Origin: Candidatus Uhrbacteria bacterium CG_4_9_14_3_um_filter_41_35
Lineage (GTDB): Bacteria; Patescibacteriota; Patescibacteriia; UBA9934
Assembly (NCBI GenBank): GCA_002791275.1
Contig: PFWT01000009.1
Span: forward strand, 146,548 to 210,547
Direction of reading: 5' to 3'
Length of the DNA stretch: 64,000 nt
Shown: one piece after another, positions 913 through 56,450 of the stretch
How positions within the stretch are numbered: position 1 is the stretch's first letter
Layout: each line of letters begins with the position of its first letter
Program-made: the position numbers and the translations under genes
The notes under the pieces: model-generated
Database searches by the model: none
Seen by the model: only the letters and a program-made list of their open reading frames with translations
Told to the model about the DNA's origin: nothing

Positions 913-1106
913 TAGAAAGTTTCAATTAAAGTTTTCCATATATTTATAGCAAAAGTCTAACAAGAAACCGAAAATTTAGCCAGTAAATAAATAACTATTA
1001 CGCTAGAATTAGCCAACTTCTCTAAGGGGGATATTTGTGCTAGGCTTGACATAAGTGGAGTTTTAGGGTAAGTTCAGCGGTCATTTACTTCATATAGGAG
1101 GAAAGA

Positions 1107-1445
1107 ATGATTGAAACACCAGTGATGTGGAGCATTATGCTCTACGTCAAAATCAAAACGCTCGGCAAGAGCGTTAACAGGACGAAGCTGCGCTTCGTGT
1201 ACACAACACTGTTGTGCTACACGATGGATAGCACGCAAATCGGGGAGATGACAAGTTCGTCATCGACTCACAGGCACATCAAAACGGTCAAGGATCTCAT
1301 CGATCACTTGACCGAAACGGAGGAGGTTCATATGGAGCGCGTTATCAAAAAAAACGCGCTCGAATGGGACCAACGCGTTAAGCGCTGGTTCGGAGAAAAA
1401 AACACGGAAAACCTCCGTGAACAGAGTTTGTTCTCCAGAGAATAA
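1107..1445 (+). CDS. hypothetical protein
   Basis: TTGACA-17-TAAGTT promoter at 1046-1074 and AGGAGG 5 nt before the ATG. The ORF ends just before a terminator hairpin. No recognisable domain. Confidence 0.5.
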   Translation: MIETPVMWSIMLYVKIKTLGKSVNRTKLRFVYTTLLCYTMDSTQIGEMTSSSSTHRHIKTVKDLIDHLTETEEVHMERVIKKNALEWDQRVKRWFGEKNTENLREQSLFSRE

Positions 1446-1451
1446 ACAAAA

Positions 1452-1484
1452 GAGCGGTCCCACTAAGGACCGCTCTATTTTTTA
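1452..1484. terminator. bidirectional intrinsic terminator
   Basis: gagcggtcc-cactaa-ggaccgctc hairpin followed by a T-run. It sits between convergent genes. Confidence 0.6.
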
Positions 1485-2054
1485 TGATGTTATTCCTTTG
1501 ATTCCCCCACTTTTTTGTGCTCGTGGTGCTTTAATTCTATCTTTTGAAGAACCTCTACCCACTTCCTGATCCTGTACCATAGCATTTTCCACAGTTAGAA
1601 TTGCCGATACCATATTTTGCTCGTCGATCTCATTCTGTTTCTGTGTGATTTTTTGCTCTAAGTCTCGAGCTGTTTTATTTCCAACTATTCTTGACCAGAA
1701 AGTTTTTGGTGCCTGTTTTGCATCTGCTAATTGTGCCTCTAATTTAGCAAGCTCACCCTGCAATTTTTCAACCTTTTGTTTAGCTTCTGAATAGGCTTTT
1801 TGCTGTTCCAAAGTAATACCTTTTTCAGCTGTTTCCGTTGCCGCATAAAGTCCTTCAAGCGCCTCCATTTCTCTTTCCGCCTTTTCAGCGTCTAGTGCCT
1901 CTGCTTCTGCACTTTCTAAAGCTATGCTCTTAGCATGTTCATCAAGTGATTCGTCAAAAAAATCAACTTCATCTTGAGGGCCTCTTTCTTTAGACTTTTT
2001 GAATTCACGATTCTCTCGTGGACTTTCCATTCCTGTAACGCCACCAACTACCAT
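1482..2054 (-). CDS. coiled-coil hypothetical protein
   Basis: Long E/A/K/Q-rich heptad-like sequence with no catalytic motifs. Confidence 0.5.
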   Translation of the reverse strand: MVVGGVTGMESPRENREFKKSKERGPQDEVDFFDESLDEHAKSIALESAEAEALDAEKAEREMEALEGLYAATETAEKGITLEQQKAYSEAKQKVEKLQGELAKLEAQLADAKQAPKTFWSRIVGNKTARDLEQKITQKQNEIDEQNMVSAILTVENAMVQDQEVGRGSSKDRIKAPRAQKSGGIKGITS

Positions 2055-4074: not shown

Positions 4075-4133
4075 ATAGTGTTAAGAGTTTAGCGCAATAA
4101 GGGTGATCAATGACAAAAAGAAACCACAAACCC

Positions 4134-4454
4134 CGTCATTCTGAGGTGAACGTGGATCACACCGAAGAATCTAGTGATAAATTACTAAGTAAATGTCGGT
4201 TAAGCACAGAGCGAAGGAGATCCTTCAGCATGAATCAGCACCCGCTTCAGGATGACGGTATGAGTGAAATGCGGTTTATTTAAGGCGACAGGAAATATAA
4301 ATTACACAATCACACAAACCTCGTCATTCTGAGCCTAGCGTGAATCACGGCGAAGAATCTCAGTGTTGAATTACAGCGTAAACAAGTTTCTGTTTTGTAA
4401 AGAGCGAAGGAGATCCTTTAGCGTAATCTGGCGCTCGCTTCAGGATGACGGTAT
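4134..4454. repeat. intergenic palindromic repeat cluster 1 (A'-B'-A'-B', about 190-nt tandem period)
   Basis: The 38-nt unit cgtcattctgag..ccgaagaatct occurs twice and the 50-nt unit cgaaggagatcc..cttcaggatgacggtat occurs twice. Units are reverse-complement to those in clusters 2 and 3. Confidence 0.8.
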
Positions 4455-4502
4455 AGGTGTGGGTCGAAATAATACAGGTATATTTTAGATCATATTAAAA
4501 CA

Positions 4503-13810: not shown

Positions 13811-13960
13811 AGTGCGAGTATTGTATCATATTAAAACTTCATTCGTTAAGTTAAGTTATTAAGGCTAATTTACCGTAAATAATGGAGGTTAACCAAAAAT
13901 ATTTTTTAATAAAAAAGCTCGGCACCACTTAGGTTACCAAGCTTAAGTTATGCGAAAGCG

Positions 13961-14182
13961 TTAACTTACATAGATAGTGACGGGGTAGATAACCCCGTCG
14001 TGCAGAAATGTCTTTTCTGTAGTCGCCTCGGCACTTGTGGCCCAAACGACAATTTCAGGGGTTGCCTCGCCGACAATTGTCGGCTGCACCGCCTCGAGCC
14101 ATAACTCGTTGCGGAGCTTCTCAGCCAGCGCCCGTGCAGCCCGTAACAAACGAGTGTTTGGCGGGCAATATTCAGCTTTCAT
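13961..14182 (-). CDS. small hypothetical protein (GC-rich islet)
   Basis: GGAGGT 5 nt before the ATG at 14182. TTGACA-17-TAGTTT promoter at 14200-14228 on the minus strand. The ORF track starts at a GTG at 14194. Confidence 0.45.
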   Translation of the reverse strand: MKAEYCPPNTRLLRAARALAEKLRNELWLEAVQPTIVGEATPEIVVWATSAEATTEKTFLHDGVIYPVTIYVS

Positions 14183-14199
14183 CTCTACCTCCACATTCT

Positions 14200-14306
14200 A
14201 AACTAGCAAGCAAATTGATAAATGTCAAGCTGTTCTTAGTTTGATTGATAAAAATTTAAACTAAAATTAGCCCATTATTGACAATACCAACTTTTTCACT
14301 TAATGT
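14200..14306. promoter_or_regulatory. divergent promoter pair with perfect -35 hexamers
   Basis: Minus strand: TTGACA (14223-14228), 17-nt spacer, TAGTTT. Plus strand: TTGACA (14278-14283), 17-nt spacer, TAATGT, then AGGAGG and a GTG start at 14325. Confidence 0.5.
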
Positions 14307-14324
14307 TGCAGAAAGGAGGAAAAA

Positions 14325-18811: not shown

Positions 18812-18836
18812 ATAGGCGTGAGGTCAGAAATTATTT

Positions 18837-29497: not shown

Positions 29498-29498
29498 A

Positions 29499-31187
29499 TT
29501 ATTCTTGAGTTACGCGCAAAACTTCTTCGAGCGTAGTTTCACCGGTTAATATTTTCTGTACCCCATCAAAAAGCATTGTGCTCATTCCCTGCTTAACCGC
29601 TATTTCTTTGACTTGATCGGCATCTTTATTACTCATTACCGCTTCTCTGATTTCATCTGTAACTGCCAAAAGTTCAAAAATTCCGGTTCGACCCTTGTAA
29701 CCTGTGTTTTTACAAATTTTACAACCCTGACCGTGAAAAACACGAATACCTGAAAGTGATTTCTTGCCGGTTACATCAGAAAAATATTTTTTTAAGTGCG
29801 GTAAATGGTTAATGGTTTTCAGTTCCTGCTCCGAAATATTCACACTTTTAATACAGTTCAAACAGATCCTTCTCACCAGTCGCTGGGCAATAACCACCAA
29901 AATTGTTGAAGAAACCAAAAAGTCTTCAACACCCATATCTTTAAGTCTTGGAAAGGCGGTTGCAGCGTCGTTTGTGTGTAAAGATGAAAAAACCAAATGC
30001 CCGGTCATCGCAGCGTTCACTGAGATATCTGCTGTTTCGCCGTCTCGAATCTCCCCCACCATAATAATGTCCGGATCCTGACGAACAATTGAACGCAATC
30101 CCTTGGCGAAAGTTAGGTTAGTTTTTGGGTTAACCTGAATCTGGCTAATACCATCAACATCATATTCAACCGGGTCTTCAATCGTGGCAATATTCACCTC
30201 GCGTTTGTTTAAAACCTTGAGCGCAGCGTAAAGCGTGGTACTTTTTCCTGAACCTGTTGGTCCAGTCACCAGGATCATACCCCAAGGTTTTTTGATAGCT
30301 TTTTTAAAAAGCTCAAAATGCGCCTCGCTTAAACCAAGATCCGTTAGGCTGAATTGACGAGTCTTCGCAGCAAGTAGTCGCATTACTGCTTTTTCACCGT
30401 TTGTGGTCGGCACAATTGACAAACGAATATCAATTTTGTCACCAAAATCGTTCGTATAGGAAATACGGCCATCCTGAGCTGCACGTTTTTCATCTGTCGC
30501 GAGTTTAGACAAAACCTTTAATCTGGTAATAACCGGGTCGTGAATTTTTTTAGGAAATTCTGCAATATCTTGCAAAATACCGTCGATTCTGAAACGAATC
30601 TGCGTAAACTCATCTTCGGGTTCAATATGAACATCACTAGTTCTAGTTTGATATGAATAATCAAAAATAGCATTAACAAGTTTTACAACAACTCCGTCCG
30701 AGTCATCGCTGTTTAAATCAGCGCCTTCGAGAATATTTTTAAAGGCAACCTTTGGATCTTTTTGAAAAAGGAATAAATTCGAAAGAATCTCACGTTCAGT
30801 TGAATAATAAAAAACCACCTCACGTCTTAAATATTTTTCAAGTAGAGCCTGTAAAGTAACGTCATGTGGGTTTGTAACTGCAAGGACTACCGAATCTTCG
30901 GTTTGTGAAATTGGCAGTAAATGTTTCTTTCGCGCAAAAGCTTCTGGAACTAAAAGAATAACATCGTCTTGTGGTTTTGTCTGTGCTGGATCGAAGTGCC
31001 GAACACCAAACCAAGACGCTACCAACTGACCAAGCTGGGCTTCGGTTAATGAACCATCTGAAACTAAAACACTGTCGATGCCTTTGGTTTTAGCACTTCG
31101 CGACTGCGCAGCTTTCATGAACTCCTCCCTTGTAACTCCACCCCCTTCAACCAGTGCCTCGTATAGTTGTTCTTTACTTAACACCAC
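29499..31187 (-). CDS. pilB: type IV pilus extension ATPase PilB (GspE family)
   Basis: GPTGSGKSTTLYA Walker A, Asp/His boxes and a C-terminal tetra-Cys motif CLNC..CKIC. Confidence 0.85.
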   Translation of the reverse strand: MVLSKEQLYEALVEGGGVTREEFMKAAQSRSAKTKGIDSVLVSDGSLTEAQLGQLVASWFGVRHFDPAQTKPQDDVILLVPEAFARKKHLLPISQTEDSVVLAVTNPHDVTLQALLEKYLRREVVFYYSTEREILSNLFLFQKDPKVAFKNILEGADLNSDDSDGVVVKLVNAIFDYSYQTRTSDVHIEPEDEFTQIRFRIDGILQDIAEFPKKIHDPVITRLKVLSKLATDEKRAAQDGRISYTNDFGDKIDIRLSIVPTTNGEKAVMRLLAAKTRQFSLTDLGLSEAHFELFKKAIKKPWGMILVTGPTGSGKSTTLYAALKVLNKREVNIATIEDPVEYDVDGISQIQVNPKTNLTFAKGLRSIVRQDPDIIMVGEIRDGETADISVNAAMTGHLVFSSLHTNDAATAFPRLKDMGVEDFLVSSTILVVIAQRLVRRICLNCIKSVNISEQELKTINHLPHLKKYFSDVTGKKSLSGIRVFHGQGCKICKNTGYKGRTGIFELLAVTDEIREAVMSNKDADQVKEIAVKQGMSTMLFDGVQKILTGETTLEEVLRVTQE

Positions 31188-35046: not shown

Positions 35047-35916
35047 TTACTCTGGTCGATACTCTCGTTTGCAGGTTAAAATCCCCTCTTTATCTGAAAC
35101 CTGTAAATCGTACACTGTGGTGCAAGACTCGATTAATGTCTTATCGTTAACTGCAGTGTCTAAAATATAATAATTCCAAGTGCTATGCCCGTCTTCACCA
35201 AAACTATTTGAAATAAATGGCAAGCCTTCTAAATAGTCAGGGATAAACTTGTAGTCAAAACTTACGATTGGCACAGAAGTTACCTGTTCAAGTTTTAGAT
35301 CCTTATAACTTGATGAAATATTATAGATTTTTAGTTCCTGTTTACCCTGTTCAGCTATCAAATAAGTATTTTTAACTCCAGAACAAATTTCAAGGACACC
35401 ATCTAAACTTTTATTGTTTGCAAGTGCCTCAATTGCGTTAAAAAATCGCTCTGGACTTTGGACTACTCCTGATATTTGCTCTGCGATATCTTGCTTTTCA
35501 AGTTCTGTAAAACTTCGCGGGTCAACTGAACCAACATAATCCTTTGCGTTTACAATACTATTGAAAGATAAACACTCAGAGTTGCGCTTTTCCTCTCTCT
35601 CGGCTCTTTTGTTTGATAAATAAGTTTTGCGATCAGGTCCTGTACTTTCCTTAAAGTCAACTTTTGAAATAACCTGCGTAAAAGGATTCACCACTGCAAC
35701 ATTACTACTAAACACGGCCTCTGAAGCAATATATTTAAGTTCCTCCTCCAGCTGATTCTTCTGTTCGTCAACCGTTGGTGGGTTCCAGTAAAGTGCGTTC
35801 ATGACTACAATGAACATTAGAAAAATAATAAACAGAATCATGAACAGAATCGACAAAACTGTTCCGTTAAACTCGTGCTCGTGCTCAGGTGTGTGCTCGT
35901 GTTTATTTATTTTCAT
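35047..35916 (-). CDS. membrane-anchored hypothetical protein (His-rich N-tail, single TM, extracytoplasmic domain)
   Basis: HEHTPEHEHE N-tail and one TM helix. The C-terminal domain is weakly similar to the two paralogs downstream. Confidence 0.55.
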   Translation of the reverse strand: MKINKHEHTPEHEHEFNGTVLSILFMILFIIFLMFIVVMNALYWNPPTVDEQKNQLEEELKYIASEAVFSSNVAVVNPFTQVISKVDFKESTGPDRKTYLSNKRAEREEKRNSECLSFNSIVNAKDYVGSVDPRSFTELEKQDIAEQISGVVQSPERFFNAIEALANNKSLDGVLEICSGVKNTYLIAEQGKQELKIYNISSSYKDLKLEQVTSVPIVSFDYKFIPDYLEGLPFISNSFGEDGHSTWNYYILDTAVNDKTLIESCTTVYDLQVSDKEGILTCKREYRPE

Positions 35917-35919
35917 ATT

Positions 35920-36735
35920 TTAGTTTAAACACATCTCGCGATTTTCTTTAAAACTATACGTAATATCACCATTTTCCAAAACTGATTTCTGGTAAACACC
36001 CACCAATATACACGAATTATTCACCCAGTTTATAGAGACTTTTTTAAATGGATCATTAAAATCAGGTTCCCTATCCGTAAGCGACTCATCATTTTTAAGT
36101 TCGCCTACAACTGTTATGTTACCTTTGTTAAAATTATACACCAAAATCTGGTTTTCTAAATAATCATTATATAGTTTATCTGAAATATCTGAGCTAAACA
36201 CCACTGTCTGACTTTGATCTGGAGACAAAATGCCGGACTGACTTCTAAGACCAGTTTCAGAAACATCACCAGTTTTTAGGTTAACCTCCGACACTGCAGA
36301 GAAAAAATCTGCTTCATCTCGAATTAAAGAAACGTAAATTCGTCCATCAAAACCAACCTGGGGCACAGCTACTAAACTTGAAATTCCTGGCCAATCAAGC
36401 GCTAATTCGGATTCAAGTCCAGTTTTTCTGTCTATGCTAACCACTTTAGGCTTTCCGTCTAGCCCTCTAAACGAAGTCGTAAAAAGTGGGATCTGCGACT
36501 CTTTGCTGTTCATTAATTTCTCAGCATTATTTAAATCGTTTTGCAGTGCAATAATCTCATTTTTAGCGGTATCAATTTCAGTGTACTTAACCTTCGTCAC
36601 GTAAACTGCCAAAATAAGTAATACAGAGACAATGCCAAACATACTCAAAGATAACCCAGTGTAAAATCTACACCTTACTGGACACTTCATTTTTACAAAT
36701 GTCTTATTTCGAGTTGTTTGCATTCCCTCCTCCAT
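35920..36735 (-). CDS. membrane-anchored protein, paralog pair member (Cys-rich N-tail + TM + coiled coil + PD40-like domain)
   Basis: MKCPVRCRF N-tail and a TM helix. ENQILVYNF and VAVPQVGFDGRIYV align with ENQILLFDL and FAVPKLDYDGKIF of the adjacent gene. Confidence 0.6.
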   Translation of the reverse strand: MEEGMQTTRNKTFVKMKCPVRCRFYTGLSLSMFGIVSVLLILAVYVTKVKYTEIDTAKNEIIALQNDLNNAEKLMNSKESQIPLFTTSFRGLDGKPKVVSIDRKTGLESELALDWPGISSLVAVPQVGFDGRIYVSLIRDEADFFSAVSEVNLKTGDVSETGLRSQSGILSPDQSQTVVFSSDISDKLYNDYLENQILVYNFNKGNITVVGELKNDESLTDREPDFNDPFKKVSINWVNNSCILVGVYQKSVLENGDITYSFKENREMCLN

Positions 36736-36739
36736 AAAA

Positions 36740-37585
36740 TTACTCTATACAAAATTCGCGCCATTCTTTATGCCGCCTGACCTGCACTGTAGCTCCTGGC
36801 TCAGCACCTTCACTCGTGTCTGGCTCGTTACTTACTGCGTAGATACGGACATTTGCGCACGTTGGGCTTAACCAATGCACCTGAATATCTCGTAAATTCG
36901 CAAAACGAGCATTTGGCGCTGCAGCGTCCAAATCTTCACCATCACGATAAGTTCCCAAAACCGAAACCTTTTCAGTAACTAAATCAAAAAGCAAAATCTG
37001 ATTTTCCTTGTAATCAACCTTTAAAACATTGTCCAAAAACTCCACCCCAGTAACCAAATATCTTTCACTTGGCGAAACTGTATTATCGGTTGCGTTTGAA
37101 GCAACACTTATTCCCGTTGTTTTACTTATCTCAGTTGCTACGTCAAAAACGTTTACCTCTCTTGACGGCAAATCGCCATCAACTGGCCCCATAACTGTAA
37201 AAATTTTTCCATCGTAATCTAATTTTGGCACCGCAAAAACTACCCTATTGCCAGTAATAATCTCTTTTGATTCGTTAAGTTCTGGGTCATACATTAAAAT
37301 TCCGCTTGAATAACCAGTTGCTTCGTCTACTGCATTGTAAAAAAGTGGGGTTGGACCTGGTAAGTTATCTATTTCAACGTTTTTGAGCCCCAGATCTAAC
37401 TCTAGCCCCTGAACCTGAGTTTCTAGTTCCTTCACTTTACTCGCACTTCCAGTATTTTGAAACCAAAGAACAAGTGAACTTATTCCTGCCACTACAAAAA
37501 GGGCAATGAACGAAAAACCGATTTTTTTCCAGCCGGTCCCACACTTAGGACAAGCTTGCGACGTTGGTGTACCCAGTGTTGCCAT
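36740..37585 (-). CDS. membrane-anchored protein, paralog of 35920..36735
   Basis: CPKCGTGW N-tail, TM helix and coiled coil. Clear collinear similarity to the neighbouring gene. Confidence 0.6.
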   Translation of the reverse strand: MATLGTPTSQACPKCGTGWKKIGFSFIALFVVAGISSLVLWFQNTGSASKVKELETQVQGLELDLGLKNVEIDNLPGPTPLFYNAVDEATGYSSGILMYDPELNESKEIITGNRVVFAVPKLDYDGKIFTVMGPVDGDLPSREVNVFDVATEISKTTGISVASNATDNTVSPSERYLVTGVEFLDNVLKVDYKENQILLFDLVTEKVSVLGTYRDGEDLDAAAPNARFANLRDIQVHWLSPTCANVRIYAVSNEPDTSEGAEPGATVQVRRHKEWREFCIE

Positions 37586-39317: not shown

Positions 39318-39421
39318 AGTGAAACTATTATACCAGATTCTGAAGAAAATTAACCTCAAAAGTCAACGGTGAGTTTTGATTATTAACAGACAAATCTCAA
39401 AGTATCGAGTTCTTAATATAC

Positions 39422-39450
39422 AAAAAAACTGCCCGAAGGCAGTTTTATTA
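39422..39450. terminator. bidirectional intrinsic terminator
   Basis: aactgcc-cgaa-ggcagtt hairpin followed by a T-rich tract. Confidence 0.55.
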
Positions 39451-39456
39451 AATAGA

Positions 39457-40104
39457 TTATTGAATCATTTTCATGATTTTACCTGAAAAAGGTCCGTACC
39501 ACGTTTCTATTAAACCTATATCAGCAGAACCAAGTGCCGGTCTACCTTCAACTAATATGTAAAATGGCAAGTTCGTTTCTAAATTCCCTTCAGTTCCTAA
39601 ATCTTTAGAAAGGTAAACAAACACACCTGCTGAAAGTCCATCTGGTGCAATGTTTACATCATTCATACCAAAGTGTGCTCTTGAATAATTAACAGGCACA
39701 CTGGTTGCTAAATATTTATCCTTTGTTGCTGGACTTAATATCTGCATAACTATATCGTCGAGATTTGTTACCTCAACAGCTGTCCATTCACCCATCATTC
39801 CATTTCTATCACCAACTTCCACTGAACCCATCGCAGTCTGGCTCGAATTTCCCGATATCCGATCTCGAACGTTTATCATATTTTCAAAATCACCTCTGTC
39901 CATCATACCAAAACCATCACGGCTTAGATCACGATCTCCTAATATACTTACGAACATCATTACGGACATGAATAGCATCATAATTAAAATAACACCTGCG
40001 ACTGCCATTAAACTTTTGTGTTCACAATGTCCGCACTCCCCCACTGATGATCTTTTATGTTCATTCATATTTTTATATTTCATATTATTTACATTGTACT
40101 TCAT
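39457..40104 (-). CDS. membrane-anchored hypothetical protein (CGHCEH N-tail + TM)
   Basis: 215-aa ORF with a single TM helix. Confidence 0.5.
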   Translation of the reverse strand: MKYNVNNMKYKNMNEHKRSSVGECGHCEHKSLMAVAGVILIMMLFMSVMMFVSILGDRDLSRDGFGMMDRGDFENMINVRDRISGNSSQTAMGSVEVGDRNGMMGEWTAVEVTNLDDIVMQILSPATKDKYLATSVPVNYSRAHFGMNDVNIAPDGLSAGVFVYLSKDLGTEGNLETNLPFYILVEGRPALGSADIGLIETWYGPFSGKIMKMIQ

Positions 40105-40209
40105 TTAATTTGTTGAAACAAATACTGCGATCACCATTTTTGCAAGGTTGAAACTTACTGAACTCCAAGACTTAACATTGGTATGTTCATAATAGAAAAT
40201 TTTTTACAT

Positions 40210-40558
40210 AAAAAAGACGCCGTCAGCAACAAGGCTGATCGGCGAAGGGGCGATGGAATTCGTGAAGGTGGGACTAAACATCCACATACAGCTTTTTTAC
40301 GGCGTGTATTGAACAGTTTAAAGGATTAGCCACTCGAGTTTACTCGCTGACCGGTCGACTTCACTGTTCTTGACAGATTGGCCCCTTTTCAGAAGCAGGT
40401 TGAAATGCACAACCCTGGTCTTTTAATTAGTCAGTTTGTTTGTCTGCTCGCCGTAGAGTTACGGTGTACAGGAAACGATGGCGGAGGTTTGCCGAAGCAA
40501 TTTGTTATACCATCCTGACCAAATACCAATCTAGTCCACCTTCACGAACTCATCGCAG
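40210..40558 (-). ncRNA. candidate structured RNA of about 350 nt (unknown family; either a stand-alone ncRNA or a long cis-regulatory leader)
   Basis: 540-bp region with no ORF and higher GC. TTGACA-17-TATCTT promoter on the minus strand. A 17-bp terminal helix pairs 40262-40278 with 40532-40548, with internal hairpins including a UUCG tetraloop. The 3' end is an intrinsic terminator at 40218-40248 (cgccgatcagc-cttgtt-gctgacggcg) followed by a U-run. Confidence 0.55.
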
Positions 40559-40564
40559 TTTGCG

Positions 40565-40593
40565 TAAGATAACAGATCAATCCATATTTGTCA
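40565..40593 (-). promoter_or_regulatory. sigma70-like promoter for the candidate RNA
   Basis: On the minus strand, TTGACA (40588-40593), a 17-nt spacer, then TATCTT (40565-40570). Confidence 0.5.
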
Positions 40594-40683
40594 AATATAA
40601 TTAGCTAACCTTCAATTAATATTTATGAATAAAAAAATGACTATTCAAGGTCATTAGCAGTGCATTTCTACGATTTCGTCTCT

Positions 40684-40914
40684 TCAAAAGTTTGGTCTAA
40701 ACCACTCCGTATAAACGTAAACGGCAATATCAAGCTCCCGGTTTAGTAGCTTTTTTGGATCTAATTCGGTCAAATAGTATTTAGAAAGCATATACATATA
40801 GTACATGTTCAAAAGAATGGCGATAACCGCAATCAAGACCATAACACTACGGTGATAAAACGTCAGATACCAAAGATGGTACAAATTCGAAGAGGTAAAA
40901 AACAAAAGGAGCAA
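40684..40914 (-). CDS. small hydrophobic hypothetical protein (doubtful)
   Basis: 76-aa ORF in an AT-rich stretch. No other support. Confidence 0.2.
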   Translation of the reverse strand: MLLLFFTSSNLYHLWYLTFYHRSVMVLIAVIAILLNMYYMYMLSKYYLTELDPKKLLNRELDIAVYVYTEWFRPNF

Positions 40915-41014
40915 AAATTTAAGTTAGCGTCTTCAGTGATTGAATGAACATACTACCTCTATTTTAAGTATTGCATCCAACTTAAGTTTATTTTTCAAAT
41001 TTGCCAATTTTTCT

Positions 41015-41050
41015 TTGTTAACATTAAAAAAATAACCAAACTAATATTTG
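41015..41050. terminator. intrinsic terminator after ftsL
   Basis: aataaccaaa-ctaatat-ttggttatt hairpin followed by tttttt. Confidence 0.55.
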
Positions 41051-41063
41051 GTTATTTTTTAGA

Positions 41064-41387
41064 TTATCGGTTGATCGCCACTGCCCCTCTATCTGGAGTT
41101 ATGTATTCAATTTTTGAAACCTTTGATAGTCCCAGCATTTGCACTCTAGTTGAAACACTGTCAACTGACTGAAGTTTGGCTACTTTTAAGTCTAGTTTGT
41201 CCTTCTCTAATTTCAAATCATCAATTGACTGAGACAGTTCACGCATTTCGTAACCCGCTGTGGCTGAAATATTGACCTGCCAAATATATGCAGAGCCGAG
41301 AACTATTGTAATCGAGACTAAAACAACCGGCAGTAAGCCATTGCTTTCGGTAAAACCTTTCAGTTGTTGATATTTTGTTTTAAACAT
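41064..41387 (-). CDS. ftsL: cell division protein FtsL/DivIC-like (septum formation initiator)
   Basis: N-terminal TM helix and coiled coil. Lies directly downstream of rsmH in dcw order. Confidence 0.6.
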   Translation of the reverse strand: MFKTKYQQLKGFTESNGLLPVVLVSITIVLGSAYIWQVNISATAGYEMRELSQSIDDLKLEKDKLDLKVAKLQSVDSVSTRVQMLGLSKVSKIEYITPDRGAVAINR

Positions 41388-41458
41388 ACCCTCCTATATT
41401 TAAGCGATGATGGTAACGGTAACAACGATTTAATCATTGTTACTAGTTACACTCACGG

Positions 41459-42316
41459 CTAGATTTTTTCTGCAATTCTTAATTTAGCACTTCGAGCCCG
41501 TTTGTTCTCCTTGATTTCGTCGTATTTCGGAACAATTGGTTTCTTCGTAACTTTTTCAAGCTGAGCCAAATCCTTTATCAGATTCTTGATCAATTTATCT
41601 TCAAGCGAGTGAAAACTGATTATAGCAAGTCGGCCACGGTTATTTAGCTGACTAACAGCCGAAGCGAAACCCTTTTCAATCTCACCAAACTCATCATTTA
41701 CCGCAATCCTGATCGCTTGGAATATTCGCGTAGCAGGATGCGCTTTTCCTCTGTGCTTGATAACATCTTCGACGACCTCAGCTAACTGAACAGTTGAAGT
41801 GATCCGAGATTTTTTTCTAGCAACAAAGATAGCTTTTGCAATTTCCCGTGCTTTCGGTTCTTCACCATAAACACGGAATAACTGAGCTAACTCTTCTTTT
41901 GACCATCCGTTAACAATCATCTCGGCAGTTAACTCTTGCGCCTTGTCGTAGCGCATATCAAGTGGGCCTTCTCGCAAGAAACTAAATCCACGGGAAGCGT
42001 CGTCAACATGAACAGACGAAAAGCCAAGATCGAACAGTATGGCGTCGGCTGGTGGTAAATCGTATTTACTCATGTTCCCGAAGGAATCTTTAATGAGCGT
42101 AATCTGATCTTTAAACTCCTTTAAATTTTGCCGAGCCTGATCCAAATTATTTTCATCCCGATCAAAGCCAATTAAGTGACCCTTAGGACCAATAATTTCT
42201 AAAATCATTTTGGCGTGACCGCCAAGACCAAGCGTTGCGTCAATTACAGTTGCACCAGGCTGTAAGTTCAGGCCCTCCAAAACCTCTTTAGCTAGTACCG
42301 GTATGTGTTTTGTCAT
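41459..42316 (-). CDS. rsmH: 16S rRNA (cytosine1402-N4)-methyltransferase
   Basis: HIPVL and DATLGLGGH SAM-binding motifs. Follows mraZ. Confidence 0.85.
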   Translation of the reverse strand: MTKHIPVLAKEVLEGLNLQPGATVIDATLGLGGHAKMILEIIGPKGHLIGFDRDENNLDQARQNLKEFKDQITLIKDSFGNMSKYDLPPADAILFDLGFSSVHVDDASRGFSFLREGPLDMRYDKAQELTAEMIVNGWSKEELAQLFRVYGEEPKAREIAKAIFVARKKSRITSTVQLAEVVEDVIKHRGKAHPATRIFQAIRIAVNDEFGEIEKGFASAVSQLNNRGRLAIISFHSLEDKLIKNLIKDLAQLEKVTKKPIVPKYDEIKENKRARSAKLRIAEKI

Positions 42317-46149: not shown

Positions 46150-46469
46150 GATTCTTCGGTGTGGTCCACGTTAACCTCAGAATGACGGGGTTTGTAATTT
46201 TCTCCGAGGTGCCAAGCGCCAGGCTCAGAATGATGGTTTAGTTTTTGACGATACGGTTTCGTTATTCTGACGCTTATCATTCATACTCCACACTCATACC
46301 GTCATCCTGAAGCGAGCGCCAGGTTACGCTGAAGGATCTCCTTCGTTTAGCCGAACCAACATTTGCTTAGTGATCCAGTAATAAGATTCTTCGCCGTGGT
46401 TCACGCCAGGCTCAGAATGACAGGGCGATTAGATTCTTCGGTGTGATCCACGTTCACCTCAAAATGACC
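46150..46469. repeat. intergenic palindromic repeat cluster 2 (between uvrA and uvrC)
   Basis: A units at 46150-46187, 46385-46422 and 46432-46469 (plus a partial copy around 46207-46236). B unit at 46298-46345. Confidence 0.8.
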
Positions 46470-49695: not shown

Positions 49696-51737
49696 TTCTT
49701 GAGCTCCTTTTGTAAGACCTCAATTTCATCTCGAATAACTGCCGCAGTTTCAAAGTTAAGGTTTGCTGCGGCTTTTGCCATCTCTTCTTCTTTTTCTTTT
49801 ATTACCAAGCGTATTTCGTGCGGTTCAGCCATCATTTCAATCTTTAGAATCTGAGATGTGTCTGCGGTATCAAGGTCGTGACCAAGTACAGCTCTAATAT
49901 CGTTGATATTTTTAATTACTGATTTTGGCGTAATTTTATGTTTTTTGTTGTATACTACCTGAATTTTCCGACGTCTATCCGTTTCCTTAAGCGCTCTTTC
50001 AAGTGAACCGGTCATTTTATCGGCATAGGCTACAACTAAACCATTTAAATGCCGAGCCGCGCGACCAATTGTTTGCACCAGCGAAGTCTCTGACCGCAAA
50101 AAACCTTCTTTGTCGGCATCCAGAATCGCAACCAGTGAAACCTCTGGCAAATCGAGTCCTTCTCTTAAGAGATTAACCCCAACCACACAATCGTAAACAC
50201 CTTTTCGTAAATCCGTCAGAATTTCCACTCGATCAAAGGTTTTAATGTCCGAATGTATGTACTCTACCTTCACTCCAGCTTCTTTCAGATATTGAGTTAA
50301 ATCTTCGGCCATTTGTTTAGTAAGAGTTGTAACCAGAGTTCGTTCACCAAGCTCGGCTCTTTCAATAATCCGCGGAATTAAATCGTCAATCTGACCTTTA
50401 TTATCCTCACATTTTTTACAGCCCTTACAATCACTTTTTACTTCACAAGGCATCTCAGTCACCGGTCGAATGATCACTTCCGGATCGATAAGTCCGGTTG
50501 GTCTTACAATCTGCTCAACAATCTGCGAAGACATTTCATTTTCATAATCGCCCGGTGTAGCCGAAACATAAATTGTTTGGTGTGTACGTTCTTCAAACTC
50601 ATCAAACTGAAGCGGTCTGTTATCCTTGGCGCTTGGCAATCTAAAACCATGCTCGACTAATGTATTTTTTCGCGCCTGATCCCCGGCATACATTGCCCGG
50701 ATCTGAGGAACGGTAACGTGCGACTCGTCGATGACGGTTAAAAAGTCATCCGGAAAATATGCCATTAGAGTATCTGCTGGCTCTCCTTCAGGTCGGCCTT
50801 CGAAATGCCGGGAGTAATTTTCAATCCCATTTGTGTAGCCCACATTTCTGAGCATCTCAATATCGTACCTTGTTCTACGATTTAAACGTTCGTATTCAAG
50901 AAGCTTGCTTTCTTTTTTTAGTCTAAGTAGACGCATTTTAAGTTCATCCTCAATTGACCTAATTGCCCCCTCTAAACTTTCGCTTCCGACCACATAGTGT
51001 TTGGCAGGGAAAAGCCACAAATCCTTGAGTCGTTCTTTAATTCTTCGCGAGACTGGGTCGAGCTCAAAAATTTCGATCAGCTCTTCGCCTTCAATAATTA
51101 ACCTGTAAATTGACGAGTTATCTGATTTTGGCATTACTTCAATAACATCACCTTTAGCTCTGAACTGACCCCGATCAACATCTGCATTAGTCCGCTCAAA
51201 GTACATACTCACCAGTTTTCGCAAAAACTCGCTTCGGTCAATTTTGTCGCCAGTGGTTAAATGAACAACTGTTTTTTTGTATTCCGTAGGCGAACCTAAA
51301 CCGTAAATACACGAAACCGAAGCTACGATAATTACATCTTTTCGAGTAAGTAGCGACTGTGTTGCTGAGTGCCGTAAACGATCAATTTCTTGATTAATTT
51401 GTGCCTCTTTTTCAATGTAAGTATCACTCCGTGGCATATATGCTTCCGGCTGATAGTAATCGTAGTAACTTACAAAATACTCTACCGCAGCCTCTGGAAA
51501 AAATTCCCGAAACTCATTCGTGAGCTGAGCTGCTAGTGTTTTGTTATGTGCAATCACCAGAGTTGGTTTCTGCGCCTGTTCAATAACATTCGCGATCGTA
51601 AAGGTTTTACCAGAACCGGTAACTCCAAGCAGAGTCTGTTTTTGCAGACCCTCTTTTAAACCACCGACCAATTTCTGAATCGCTAACGGCTGATCACCGG
51701 CTGGTTTATATTTTGATTCCAGTTTAAATTTTGCCAT
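49686..51737 (-). CDS. uvrB: excinuclease ABC subunit B
   Basis: YKPAGDQP N-terminus, helicase motifs (GVTGSGKT) and a C-terminal UVR domain. The start is probably MAKFKLESKY (the ORF track extends to 51818). Confidence 0.9.
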   Translation of the reverse strand: MAKFKLESKYKPAGDQPLAIQKLVGGLKEGLQKQTLLGVTGSGKTFTIANVIEQAQKPTLVIAHNKTLAAQLTNEFREFFPEAAVEYFVSYYDYYQPEAYMPRSDTYIEKEAQINQEIDRLRHSATQSLLTRKDVIIVASVSCIYGLGSPTEYKKTVVHLTTGDKIDRSEFLRKLVSMYFERTNADVDRGQFRAKGDVIEVMPKSDNSSIYRLIIEGEELIEIFELDPVSRRIKERLKDLWLFPAKHYVVGSESLEGAIRSIEDELKMRLLRLKKESKLLEYERLNRRTRYDIEMLRNVGYTNGIENYSRHFEGRPEGEPADTLMAYFPDDFLTVIDESHVTVPQIRAMYAGDQARKNTLVEHGFRLPSAKDNRPLQFDEFEERTHQTIYVSATPGDYENEMSSQIVEQIVRPTGLIDPEVIIRPVTEMPCEVKSDCKGCKKCEDNKGQIDDLIPRIIERAELGERTLVTTLTKQMAEDLTQYLKEAGVKVEYIHSDIKTFDRVEILTDLRKGVYDCVVGVNLLREGLDLPEVSLVAILDADKEGFLRSETSLVQTIGRAARHLNGLVVAYADKMTGSLERALKETDRRRKIQVVYNKKHKITPKSVIKNINDIRAVLGHDLDTADTSQILKIEMMAEPHEIRLVIKEKEEEMAKAAANLNFETAAVIRDEIEVLQKELKNKK

Positions 51738-51866
51738 AACACAAACGCCTGCATCCTTAAAGTTATAGGGTGGCCTATAACGCTTTGGGATCCAGGTTTT
51801 AGATTTAATTGTACGCAAAGTATGCCAAAAAAAAGTCTTTTGGTCAAGTTGTTGCTGGTCCTTATT

Positions 51867-52112
51867 CTACCGAAAAGGGTGTGTATAAAAATCACCCCGA
51901 TCATCAGAATCGGGGTGATTAGACGAAGTGCGACGATAACCGCGCTTGCCCTTTTTAGTGCTGTGAAAACCCTCACCACCACGCATACGCATAGCGAGCA
52001 CTTCCGGGTTACGGTTAACGGGCACTTGAACACTCTGCGCCTTTTGAGCGGAACGTTCCGCTCGCTTGGCTTGGCGCGCTTTCCTACGCGCTTTTTCAGA
52101 CTTACTCTTCAC
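51867..52112 (-). CDS. small highly basic protein (uncertain; alternative is a non-coding GC-rich element)
   Basis: GTG start preceded by AAGGAGGTG. K/R-rich. A 10-bp perfect hairpin with a U-run lies inside the last 15 codons, which is unusual for a CDS. Confidence 0.35.
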   Translation of the reverse strand: MKSKSEKARRKARQAKRAERSAQKAQSVQVPVNRNPEVLAMRMRGGEGFHSTKKGKRGYRRTSSNHPDSDDRGDFYTHPFR

Positions 52113-52289
52113 TTGGCACCTCCTTTTGGTAACTATCTGCAGTGATCAGCAGACCAAGTGGAACTGCCATCTGAGCAAGTCCCATCAGAGATAACTCAAA
52201 CAAATAAGTAAAAATAACCTCAGTCACAGTAACCTCCAACAACTTTTGTTGATAGTCAAAAGTACCACATAAAAACTAGAAAGTCAACC

Positions 52290-52322
52290 TTATCAGAACA
52301 AATAACAGCCCGAAGGCTGTTA
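52290..52322. terminator. intrinsic terminator
   Basis: aacagcc-cgaa-ggctgtt hairpin followed by a T-rich tract. Confidence 0.55.
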
Positions 52323-52793
52323 TTTGTTCATATGACGCATTACTACATCGTTCGCTCCGCCTGGTACTTTTGTCATCCAGGCTCGGTCTTTATTTTTTAT
52401 CATCTCTCGAATCTCAGCAGAATCGTGGCCAGGTACGTGCGTAATTCGTTTTGTAGCTATACCAGCTTTATCCGCCAAAGCGAGTACATCGTCTTTGCCA
52501 CTCCAAATTGCTACTTCGTCCGCAGGTCGCTCGGCAACTTCAAGAAGTTTGTCGACCCAATCCTCGTCCGAAATGCAGTCATCCACTACTACGATCTGAG
52601 CATCCATAATGCTTTCGTTAAGTAGTGCTGCGCTGATCATATCGCGTACCTCCTCCGCATTAAACATCTCCTCCTGACCACCACCACAAATTGCAATAAT
52701 CACTCGATCGCAAGTTTTCATCATTCCTTGCACTACCATCAATTGGCCCGTGTGGAATGGTTCAAATTTACCTGGAAAAATACATGTAGCCAT
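52320..52793 (-). CDS. archaeal-type nicotinamide-nucleotide adenylyltransferase (NadM-like cytidylyltransferase fold)
   Basis: GKFEPFHTGQL (GxFxPxHxGH-like), RVIIAICGGGQ, and co-linearity with archaeal NMNAT. Confidence 0.6.
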   Translation of the reverse strand: MATCIFPGKFEPFHTGQLMVVQGMMKTCDRVIIAICGGGQEEMFNAEEVRDMISAALLNESIMDAQIVVVDDCISDEDWVDKLLEVAERPADEVAIWSGKDDVLALADKAGIATKRITHVPGHDSAEIREMIKNKDRAWMTKVPGGANDVVMRHMNK

Positions 52794-55658: not shown

Positions 55659-56090
55659 AGATTCCTCGCCGTGATTCACGGTAGGCTCTGAATGACGAGG
55701 TAATGAGATTCTTCGGTGTGATTCGCGTTAGGCTCTGAATTACGGTTTTGCTTGTCGTATTATAATAAATCGTCCCACACTCATACCGTCATCCTGAAGC
55801 TAGCGCCAGATTACGCTGAAGGATCTCCTTCGCCCTTTACTAAACAGAAACCTGTTTACGCTGTGATTCAACACTGAGATTCTTCGGTTTAATCCACGTT
55901 CACCTCAGAATGACAGGGTTTGTGATTTTTTATGCTGTTATTTTGATTAGGTCCCTTACCCATTCCGTCATCATGAAGCTGGCGACGACTCACGCTGAAG
56001 GATCTCCTTCGTATTGTGCTGAACCGACATTTACCTGGTGATTCAGTAATGAGATTCTTCGGTGTGATTCGCGTTCACCTCAGAATGACG
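55659..56090. repeat. intergenic palindromic repeat cluster 3
   Basis: A units at 55659-55696, 55706-55743, 55878-55915 and 56053-56090. B units at 55784-55831 and 55963-56011. Confidence 0.8.
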
Positions 56091-56210: not shown

Positions 56211-56284
56211 TGGTTCCCGGACAGGGATTCGAACCCCGATTACCTGTTCCAGAAACAGGTGTCCTGCCTTTAGACGATCCAGGA
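56211..56284 (-). tRNA. tRNA-Gln (anticodon CUG)
   Basis: Folds by hand into a cloverleaf: 7-bp acceptor stem with U1:A72, D-loop GG, anticodon loop UUCUGGA, T-loop TTCGAAT, and an encoded CCA. Confidence 0.85.
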
Positions 56285-56450
56285 GTGAGTGAACACAGTA
56301 TTAAAAGTCTACTTATAAATACTATTGAGCGAACGAGTTGGACACCGGAGGTATCCAGGAGTGATATTGGAAATTAACACCTAATCGTGCGAAGAGAATA
56401 TCTAATTTGTGAGTGTTTGTCAATACTTTGTTTAATTGTTTTGTAGATAA

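Follow-up and report, generated by a model that had tools for sequence, protein, structure and literature searches.

Among described bacterial RNAs, those closest to the locus analyzed here are the housekeeping RNAs (RNase P RNA, 6S RNA, SRP RNA, and tmRNA), with which it shares a length of 300–400 nt, a strong predicted promoter and a terminator of its own, GC enrichment within an AT-rich genome, and 5′ and 3′ ends that pair to close a branched body. A second set comprises OLE, ROOL, GOLLD, raiA, and HEARO, which were found by screens for GC-rich intergenic regions and are defined by hundreds of covarying homologues. Parts of the same layout also appear in riboswitches and attenuators that act through a terminator, and in the long near-perfect helices of RNase III stalks (pre-rRNA stems, phage and IS transcripts) and of MITEs (e.g., Correia elements). 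The genomes of CPR/Patescibacteria are tiny and contain little non-coding DNA, and to our knowledge almost nothing has been described of their regulatory or structural RNAs.

The candidate lies in a 64,000-nt stretch of DNA (hereafter the window) from Candidatus Uhrbacteria bacterium CG_4_9_14_3_um_filter_41_35, an uncultured groundwater bacterium. The RsmH encoded at 41459-42316 is 100% identical to a protein of this CPR/Patescibacteria MAG, whose assembly includes PJA46636 and PJA46637. With moderate confidence, we read it as a candidate gene for a young, species-restricted, independently transcribed, and stable structured sRNA. The features of the locus, in the order of transcription, are as follows.

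Positions 40684-40914, minus strand: predicted small hydrophobic ORF upstream of the RNA, 76 aa from a TTG start and 52 aa according to the gene callers.
Positions 40210-40594, minus strand: candidate RNA locus, in which a promoter, a terminal helix, and a terminator bracket a GC-rich, ORF-free interior.
Positions 40566-40594, minus strand: predicted sigma-70-type promoter, with a −35 TTGACA (40594-40589), a 17-nt spacer, and an extended −10 TGtTATCTT (hexamer 40571-40566).
Positions 40210-40560, minus strand: predicted primary transcript of ∼350 nt, from the positions of promoter and terminator.
Positions 40529-40556, minus strand: 5′ strand of the terminal helix P1 (GCGAUGAGUUCGUGAAGGUGGACUAGAU), from the minimum-energy fold, the duplex energy, and an inverted-repeat search.
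Positions 40416-40528, minus strand: interior domain 1, a branched stem, from the minimum-energy fold and the partition function (helix probabilities 0.73–0.99).
Positions 40489-40500, minus strand: C(UUCG)G tetraloop hairpin uugc-UUCG-gcaa in domain 1 (pair probability 0.94–0.97).
Positions 40451-40464, minus strand: hairpin CCGUA-ACUC-UACGG in domain 1 (pair probability 0.94–0.97).
Positions 40397-40415, minus strand: hairpin GGGUUG-UGCAUUU-CAACCU (pair probability 0.96).
Positions 40381-40396, minus strand: hairpin GCUUCU-GAAA-AGGGGC (pair probability 0.92).
Positions 40311-40369, minus strand: long interrupted hairpin GAACAGU...ACUGUUC, capped by CGAG-UAAA-CUCG (probabilities 0.56–0.99).
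Positions 40286-40309, minus strand: weak hairpin whose loop is rich in A (AUACA.GC / GC UGUAU; probability 0.64–0.67), the least certain element.
Positions 40250-40279, minus strand: 3′ strand of P1 (GUUUAGUCCCACCUUCACGAAUUCCAUCGC), with two bulged C residues, from the fold and the duplex energy.
Positions 40210-40244, minus strand: intrinsic terminator, CGCCGaUCAGC-CUUGUU-GCUGACGGCG (40244-40218) followed by UCUUUUUU (U-run 40215-40210).
Positions 39457-40104, minus strand: downstream gene, whose 215-aa orphan product has a single transmembrane helix at its N terminus.

The minus-strand gene order is mraZ, rsmH, an ftsL-like gene, the hydrophobic ORF of 52–76 aa, the RNA, the 215-aa orphan membrane protein, and iPGM. 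The small ORF is followed by a weak AT-rich hairpin, and neither it nor the 215-aa protein matches a family in Pfam, PADLOC, or PHROGs. The 215-aa protein has zero homologues among 5.8 billion proteins, and its AlphaFold2 model was unusable for assigning a function (pLDDT 40, with the transmembrane helix alone confident). Downstream of iPGM, three successive minus-strand genes (35047-37585) encode proteins of 271–289 aa, each with an N-terminal transmembrane helix and none assigned to a family by Pfam, PADLOC, or PHROGs; relatives have different genes there. The gap between the small ORF and the 215-aa gene (40105-40683) is 579 nt long. Its ORFs reach just 46–54 aa, and the most that any frame offers between two stop codons is 57 aa. 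GC content is 0.465–0.48 across 40200-40499 and 0.31–0.33 on either flank; for most of the window's short intergenic regions it is 0.20–0.35. A preliminary description, made from the sequence alone, had pointed to a GC-rich stretch here with no ORF longer than 60 aa, and this is borne out, with no ORF of at least 60 aa in the gap and GC rising to 0.48. Another GC-rich gap in the window, of 514 nt (13811-14324), contains a 77-aa ORF (MEVEMKAEYCPPNTRLLRAARALAEKLRNELW...) at 13961-14194 on the minus strand, which appears to be a genuine small gene and not an RNA.

The predicted promoter (40594-40566) has 10 of 12 consensus matches plus the TG, is preceded by an AT-rich stretch, and is the top promoter-like site within 39400-41500. 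Taken alone, hexamer pairs that score this well are common: they are expected by chance about once per 5 kb, and the window holds 25 such sites versus 19.4 in shuffled sequence. The site is persuasive because of its position and because the same layout recurs at tRNA-Gln(CTG) (56211-56284, minus strand), where a TTGACA-17-TATTCT site of identical architecture (56395-56423, minus strand) lies ∼110 nt upstream. The transcript would start at A40559/40560, 6–7 nt past the −10 and 3–4 nt before P1, and would end in the U-run of the terminator, whose hairpin begins 5 nt after P1. This hairpin has 10 bp, one bulged A, and a CUUGUU loop (−16 kcal/mol, pair probability 0.98–1.00), and is followed by six U residues that end ∼105 nt ahead of the ATG at 40104. 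A pattern scanner overlooked it because of the bulge. Both signals had been proposed in the preliminary description, as a minus-strand TTGACA with a 17-nt spacer to TATCTT and as a canonical terminator ∼105 nt before the next gene; each is present as described, the −10 being additionally preceded by TG. The locus thus has what is generally asked of a stand-alone sRNA gene, namely a predicted promoter and an intrinsic terminator of its own that bracket a non-coding structured segment. The improbable feature is the positioning of promoter and terminator against P1, not the quality of the promoter.

P1 consists of 28 bp in three segments (6 + 15 + 7) with two single-base bulges and three G-U pairs; its duplex energy is −41.2 kcal/mol and its pair probabilities are 0.82–0.93. 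Its arms are the sole long-range inverted repeat with at least 90% complementarity in the 64-kb window. The pairing had been recognized earlier as a 17-bp terminal helix with arms ∼270 nt apart; the arms do pair, over a greater length than was then stated. P1 closes a predicted five-branch interior of short, mostly perfect hairpins, and the body of the RNA measures ∼310 nt. One of these hairpins carries a C(UUCG)G tetraloop, a type that is hyperstable. Two of the local hairpins named in the preliminary description (uugc-UUCG-gcaa and ccgua-acuc-uacgg) recur in the minimum-energy fold; the outer cuccgcc/ggcgag pairing does not, and GCCAUC-GAUGGU replaces it.

The full-length RNA folds better than shuffled sequence. 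The 361-nt sense strand has a minimum free energy of −127.3 kcal/mol (z −6.8) and the antisense strand one of −118.3 kcal/mol (z −4.1), with none of 100 shuffles as good in either case; the sense strand is thus the more stable by 9 kcal/mol. The 249-nt interior by itself is modest, at −68.4 kcal/mol for the sense strand (z −2.0, 8 of 200 shuffles as good) and −66.3 kcal/mol for the antisense strand (z −1.4, 18 of 200), so that the statistical weight lies mostly in the P1 inverted repeat and the terminator. On the sense strand, the three non-Watson-Crick pairs of P1 are without exception G-U; their antisense counterparts would be C-A. There are ∼12 G-U pairs across the whole sense-strand fold. 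That the imperfections of P1 are all G-U fits selection on an RNA rather than on a DNA palindrome, weakly (3/3, p ∼0.125). In a crude window-wide scan of folding energy against GC content, the candidate region ranked 7th of ∼1,060 windows. The same scan, made with 360-nt windows, placed ∼1081-1560 (both strands) and ∼51721-52440 (minus strand) above the candidate, at ∼3 SD better folding than GC predicts; both of these stretches overlap predicted ORFs.

The RNA region is present on nine contigs of this species, recovered from different metagenomes, at 99.9–100% identity over the part that each covers; two of the contigs stop within the RNA. Since the flanks match just as closely, conservation of the RNA among these contigs is uninformative on constraint. 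The next relatives are just 61–68% identical in RsmH. In five of six (L019, L020, L026, L027, and L028), iPGM follows directly after ftsL with gaps of 24–137 nt, and the RNA sits in a 1.7-kb segment that these five relatives are missing. The closest relative found is L029 (RsmH 68%), in which a spacer of 418 nt separates ftsL from the next gene, which encodes a membrane protein. Neither blastn nor nhmmer detects any similarity between that spacer and the RNA; the spacer scores at most 7.4 bits with two sub-domain covariance models, and has no long closing helix (folding z −1.8). The L029 protein (1655-2191) aligns with the 215-aa orphan at 33% over 76 aa (E 0.43), and the two proteins share a short motif after the transmembrane helix, FGMMD..D.E.MI ... 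MMG. Such a pattern suggests a very fast-evolving, lineage-specific family of putative membrane proteins beside the division cluster.

Wider searches likewise returned no homologue of the RNA. Covariance models run on 258 kb of the relatives' loci and on the window itself found none, and a blastn search (word 11) gave no match among 50,697 phage and 72,556 plasmid records. Two scans of viral_contigs with antisense-frame pseudo-peptides, used as degenerate multi-seed DNA probes, were also empty. The same pseudo-peptide probe gave a single 25-aa match of 46% in JGI metagenome_contigs, on a GC-rich 1.1-kb contig (L022; nhmmer E 0.11), which we take as chance; this metagenome result is a weak negative, as the scan also missed the host species' own contigs. 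A single genome_contigs scan, made with the RsmH protein, did not return the host species, and its best match, 61% identical, lacks the RNA gap. The preliminary description had named a lack of conservation in relatives as a finding that would speak against it, and this is what we observe: the RNA is absent from the equivalent locus of six RsmH relatives (nhmmer, blastn, and two sub-domain covariance models) and from all collections searched. No base pair of the candidate RNA therefore has covariation support. To judge from these comparisons, the RNA seems to be confined to one species-level population, within a fast-evolving, lineage-specific segment.

A restricted distribution and a terminal inverted repeat would also be expected of non-functional or selfish DNA, i.e., a MITE-like remnant or the product of a recent inverted duplication, acquired together with the fast-evolving ftsL-iPGM segment, whose fold is a by-product of its terminal repeats. 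The arms do form terminal inverted repeats that pair over 28 bp and carry most of the folding signal, the 1.7-kb segment around them is missing from five relatives, no homologue occurs in the searched collections, and the same genome harbors another palindromic intergenic repeat family. The candidate further resembles both RNase III stalks and MITEs in its long near-perfect helix, its arms ∼270 nt apart, and its lineage-specific setting. It differs from them in having no rRNA or mobile-element content, no target-site duplication flanking the arms, and a single copy in the 64-kb window, and it is dissimilar to the window's other repeat family. Moreover, the imperfections of the helix are all G-U on one strand, the sense fold is the better one by the margin given above, and promoter and terminator hug the ends of the helix, a placement that random insertion leaves unexplained. 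We consider a selfish or non-functional origin unlikely.

The other repeat family fills the remaining long intergenic gaps of the window (4131-4455, 46176-46469, and 55686-56090). Its palindromic unit is ∼130 nt long, is closed by CGTCATTCTGAG... / ...CTTCAGGATGACG, and shares the internal sequences AGAGCGAAGGAGATCC and CGAAGAATCT; the 12-mer of the repeat occurs 18 times at up to two mismatches, against 3.6 expected. The family has no Rfam match at the gathering score; it may represent either a MITE- or REP-like element or a structured RNA present in several copies.

Comparison with known RNA families gave no assignment for the candidate. At the gathering score, the 4,227 families of Rfam 15 yielded tRNA-Gln as the sole match in the whole window, and at E ≤ 10, searches of 801 nt and 371 nt around the candidate returned noise only (rli62, E 5.4; snoU83B, E 3–7). 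ARAGORN likewise found tRNA-Gln (56211-56284) alone, with no tmRNA, tRNA-like domain, or tag frame. The RNase P RNA models (RF00010/RF00011) give no match at E ≤ 10, and the GGAAAGUCC and ACAGAA...GGCUUA motifs are absent from the sequence. We rejected tmRNA because no tRNA-like domain, tag frame, or model score was found, and SRP RNA and 6S RNA because neither scores in Rfam and the predicted body is a five-branch junction of ∼310 nt rather than a rod, the form of 6S RNA being a ∼190-nt rod that has a bubble at its center. No riboswitch family scores at E ≤ 10 in the 371-nt search, and the Rfam covariance models of OLE, ROOL, GOLLD, raiA, and HEARO find no match. Among the neighboring proteins there is no reverse transcriptase, TnpB/IscB, IS110 recombinase, or Cas protein (Pfam, PADLOC, PHROGs), which rules out the usual guide and mobile-element RNAs (retron msr-msd, omega RNA, IS110 bridge RNA, and tracrRNA).

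Coding explanations fared no better. The concatenated open stretches of all six frames matched nothing among 5.8 billion proteins. A HMMER search of 1.84 billion representatives with the antisense-frame pseudo-peptide returned, apart from three unrelated proteins rich in repeats, only the spurious 46-aa ORF from which the probe derives. Because these translations have no protein relatives, a decayed protein gene is not supported. The earlier finding that RNase P, tmRNA, SRP, T-box, and B12-box consensus elements are lacking holds at E ≤ 10 across Rfam, and the frameshifted protein gene that had been named as a possible refutation has left no sign in the six-frame pseudo-peptides.

These searches bear most directly on whether the locus encodes a highly divergent CPR version of a housekeeping RNA (RNase P RNA, tmRNA, SRP RNA, or 6S RNA) that current models miss. 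CPR bacteria are known for divergent RNAs, and the size, the predicted promoter and terminator, the 5′-3′ terminal helix closing a branched body, and the GC enrichment are all typical of such genes. However, the candidate has none of their motifs, no covariance model scores at E ≤ 10 on the 371 nt, ARAGORN detects neither a tRNA-like domain nor a tag frame, and P1, at 28 bp, is far longer than the terminal helices of these RNAs. A housekeeping RNA should also be detectable in relatives, whereas this one is absent at their equivalent locus (a locus-only search). We regard a missed housekeeping RNA as highly improbable.

Some smaller proposals were tried and rejected. An anti-Shine-Dalgarno mimic (an exposed CCUCC) was dismissed as the Shine-Dalgarno motif is scarcely used here; a motif of this kind precedes just 5 of the 42 genes of the window. 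For a type I toxin-antitoxin pair with the upstream small ORF, the sole complementarity is a 9-nt match (an estimated ∼0.4 expected by chance), and a 15/17 direct repeat between the 5′ end of the RNA and the downstream ORF is likewise close to chance (∼0.2 expected). Several genes of the window have a TATAAT-like element, in some cases with a TG, 6–12 nt before the ATG (e.g., 39318-39342, 18812-18836, and 29498-29522). To judge by these motifs, the Uhrbacteria genome may make widespread use of leaderless or very short-leader mRNAs, as the pattern suggests.

A further alternative is that the RNA is the 5′ leader of the orphan membrane-protein gene (39457-40104), reached by partial read-through of the terminator, and that its structure attenuates expression or stabilizes the mRNA against 5′-end-dependent decay without sensing a ligand. 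The gene lies on the same strand, ∼105 nt beyond the U-run; the promoter scan has no scoring site from the terminator to the start codon, and the 215-aa gene could be co-transcribed with the candidate RNA through the terminator. P1 also begins within ∼4 nt of the predicted 5′ end, a geometry like that of the known 5′ stabilizers of Bacillus mRNA decay, in which a helix lies close to the 5′ end. Against this, the terminator is strong (−16 kcal/mol, six U residues) and no alternative pairing disrupts it. Its hairpin forms independently of P1 and still appears when only the 3′ part is folded; if the hairpin is disallowed, the remaining structure does not change; and the best competitor for its 3′ arm lies ∼120 nt upstream, within a stable hairpin. 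A leader of ∼460 nt would moreover be atypical in a host whose genes often have a −10 just before the ATG and no Shine-Dalgarno sequence. A conserved association between RNA and downstream gene was not seen in the one comparison available, L029, which seems to have a weak homologue of the gene without the RNA. We think that a leader function is unlikely.

The ligand-sensing form of this alternative is disfavored more strongly. The locus resembles terminating riboswitches and attenuators in its P1-closed domain, in the terminator directly after it, and in its place upstream of a same-strand membrane-protein gene. It differs from them in the strength of P1, which at 28 bp and −41 kcal/mol is not plausibly ligand-gated, and in lacking an aptamer match, a conserved gene association (judged from L029), and competition between terminator and antiterminator; folding tests found no antiterminator that overlaps P1 or competes with the terminator. 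A terminator that forms whatever the state of P1 is as expected of the end of a gene, not of a switch. Of the interpretation first put forward, the unassigned structured RNA candidate therefore stands, with no Rfam or protein match; the riboswitch-like leader is unlikely, and a novel ncRNA class is unproven.

If the locus is, as we favor, an independently transcribed sRNA gene, RNA polymerase would start at the sigma-70-type promoter ∼3–4 nt ahead of the first P1 pair, and transcription would stop at the intrinsic terminator 5 nt past the last one. The two ends of the ∼310-nt body would then zip into the 28-bp helix around the five-branch interior. By analogy with the terminal helices of other stable RNAs, we conjecture that the near-flush 5′ helix and the 3′ terminator hairpin may shield the RNA from exonucleases. 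P1 has the length required of an RNase III substrate, and the mature RNA may therefore be a processed form. The branched interior would serve as a module that works through its structure, e.g., by binding a protein, and not as a linear antisense seed.

A bolder form of this reading is that the RNA is the founder of a new CPR/Patescibacteria class of large (∼310 nt) structured ncRNA, acting as a protein-binding scaffold or a catalytic RNA. Its relatives would then be too divergent to be detected from one sequence, or would lie in genomes outside the reach of our searches. The candidate shares with OLE, ROOL, GOLLD, raiA, and HEARO a long GC-rich, ORF-free intergenic region in an AT-rich genome and a predicted multi-branched fold; it matches none of their Rfam models and, unlike them, is a single sequence. 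We hold the founding of such a class to be quite doubtful. A class needs homologues, and we have therefore filed the candidate as an unclassified, generic stand-alone bacterial structured sRNA. Its present standing is that of a single-species candidate and not of an established discovery. If well expressed, a complex RNA of ∼310 nt in CPR bacteria would be unexpected, and it could indicate a lineage-specific ribonucleoprotein or a new RNA function.
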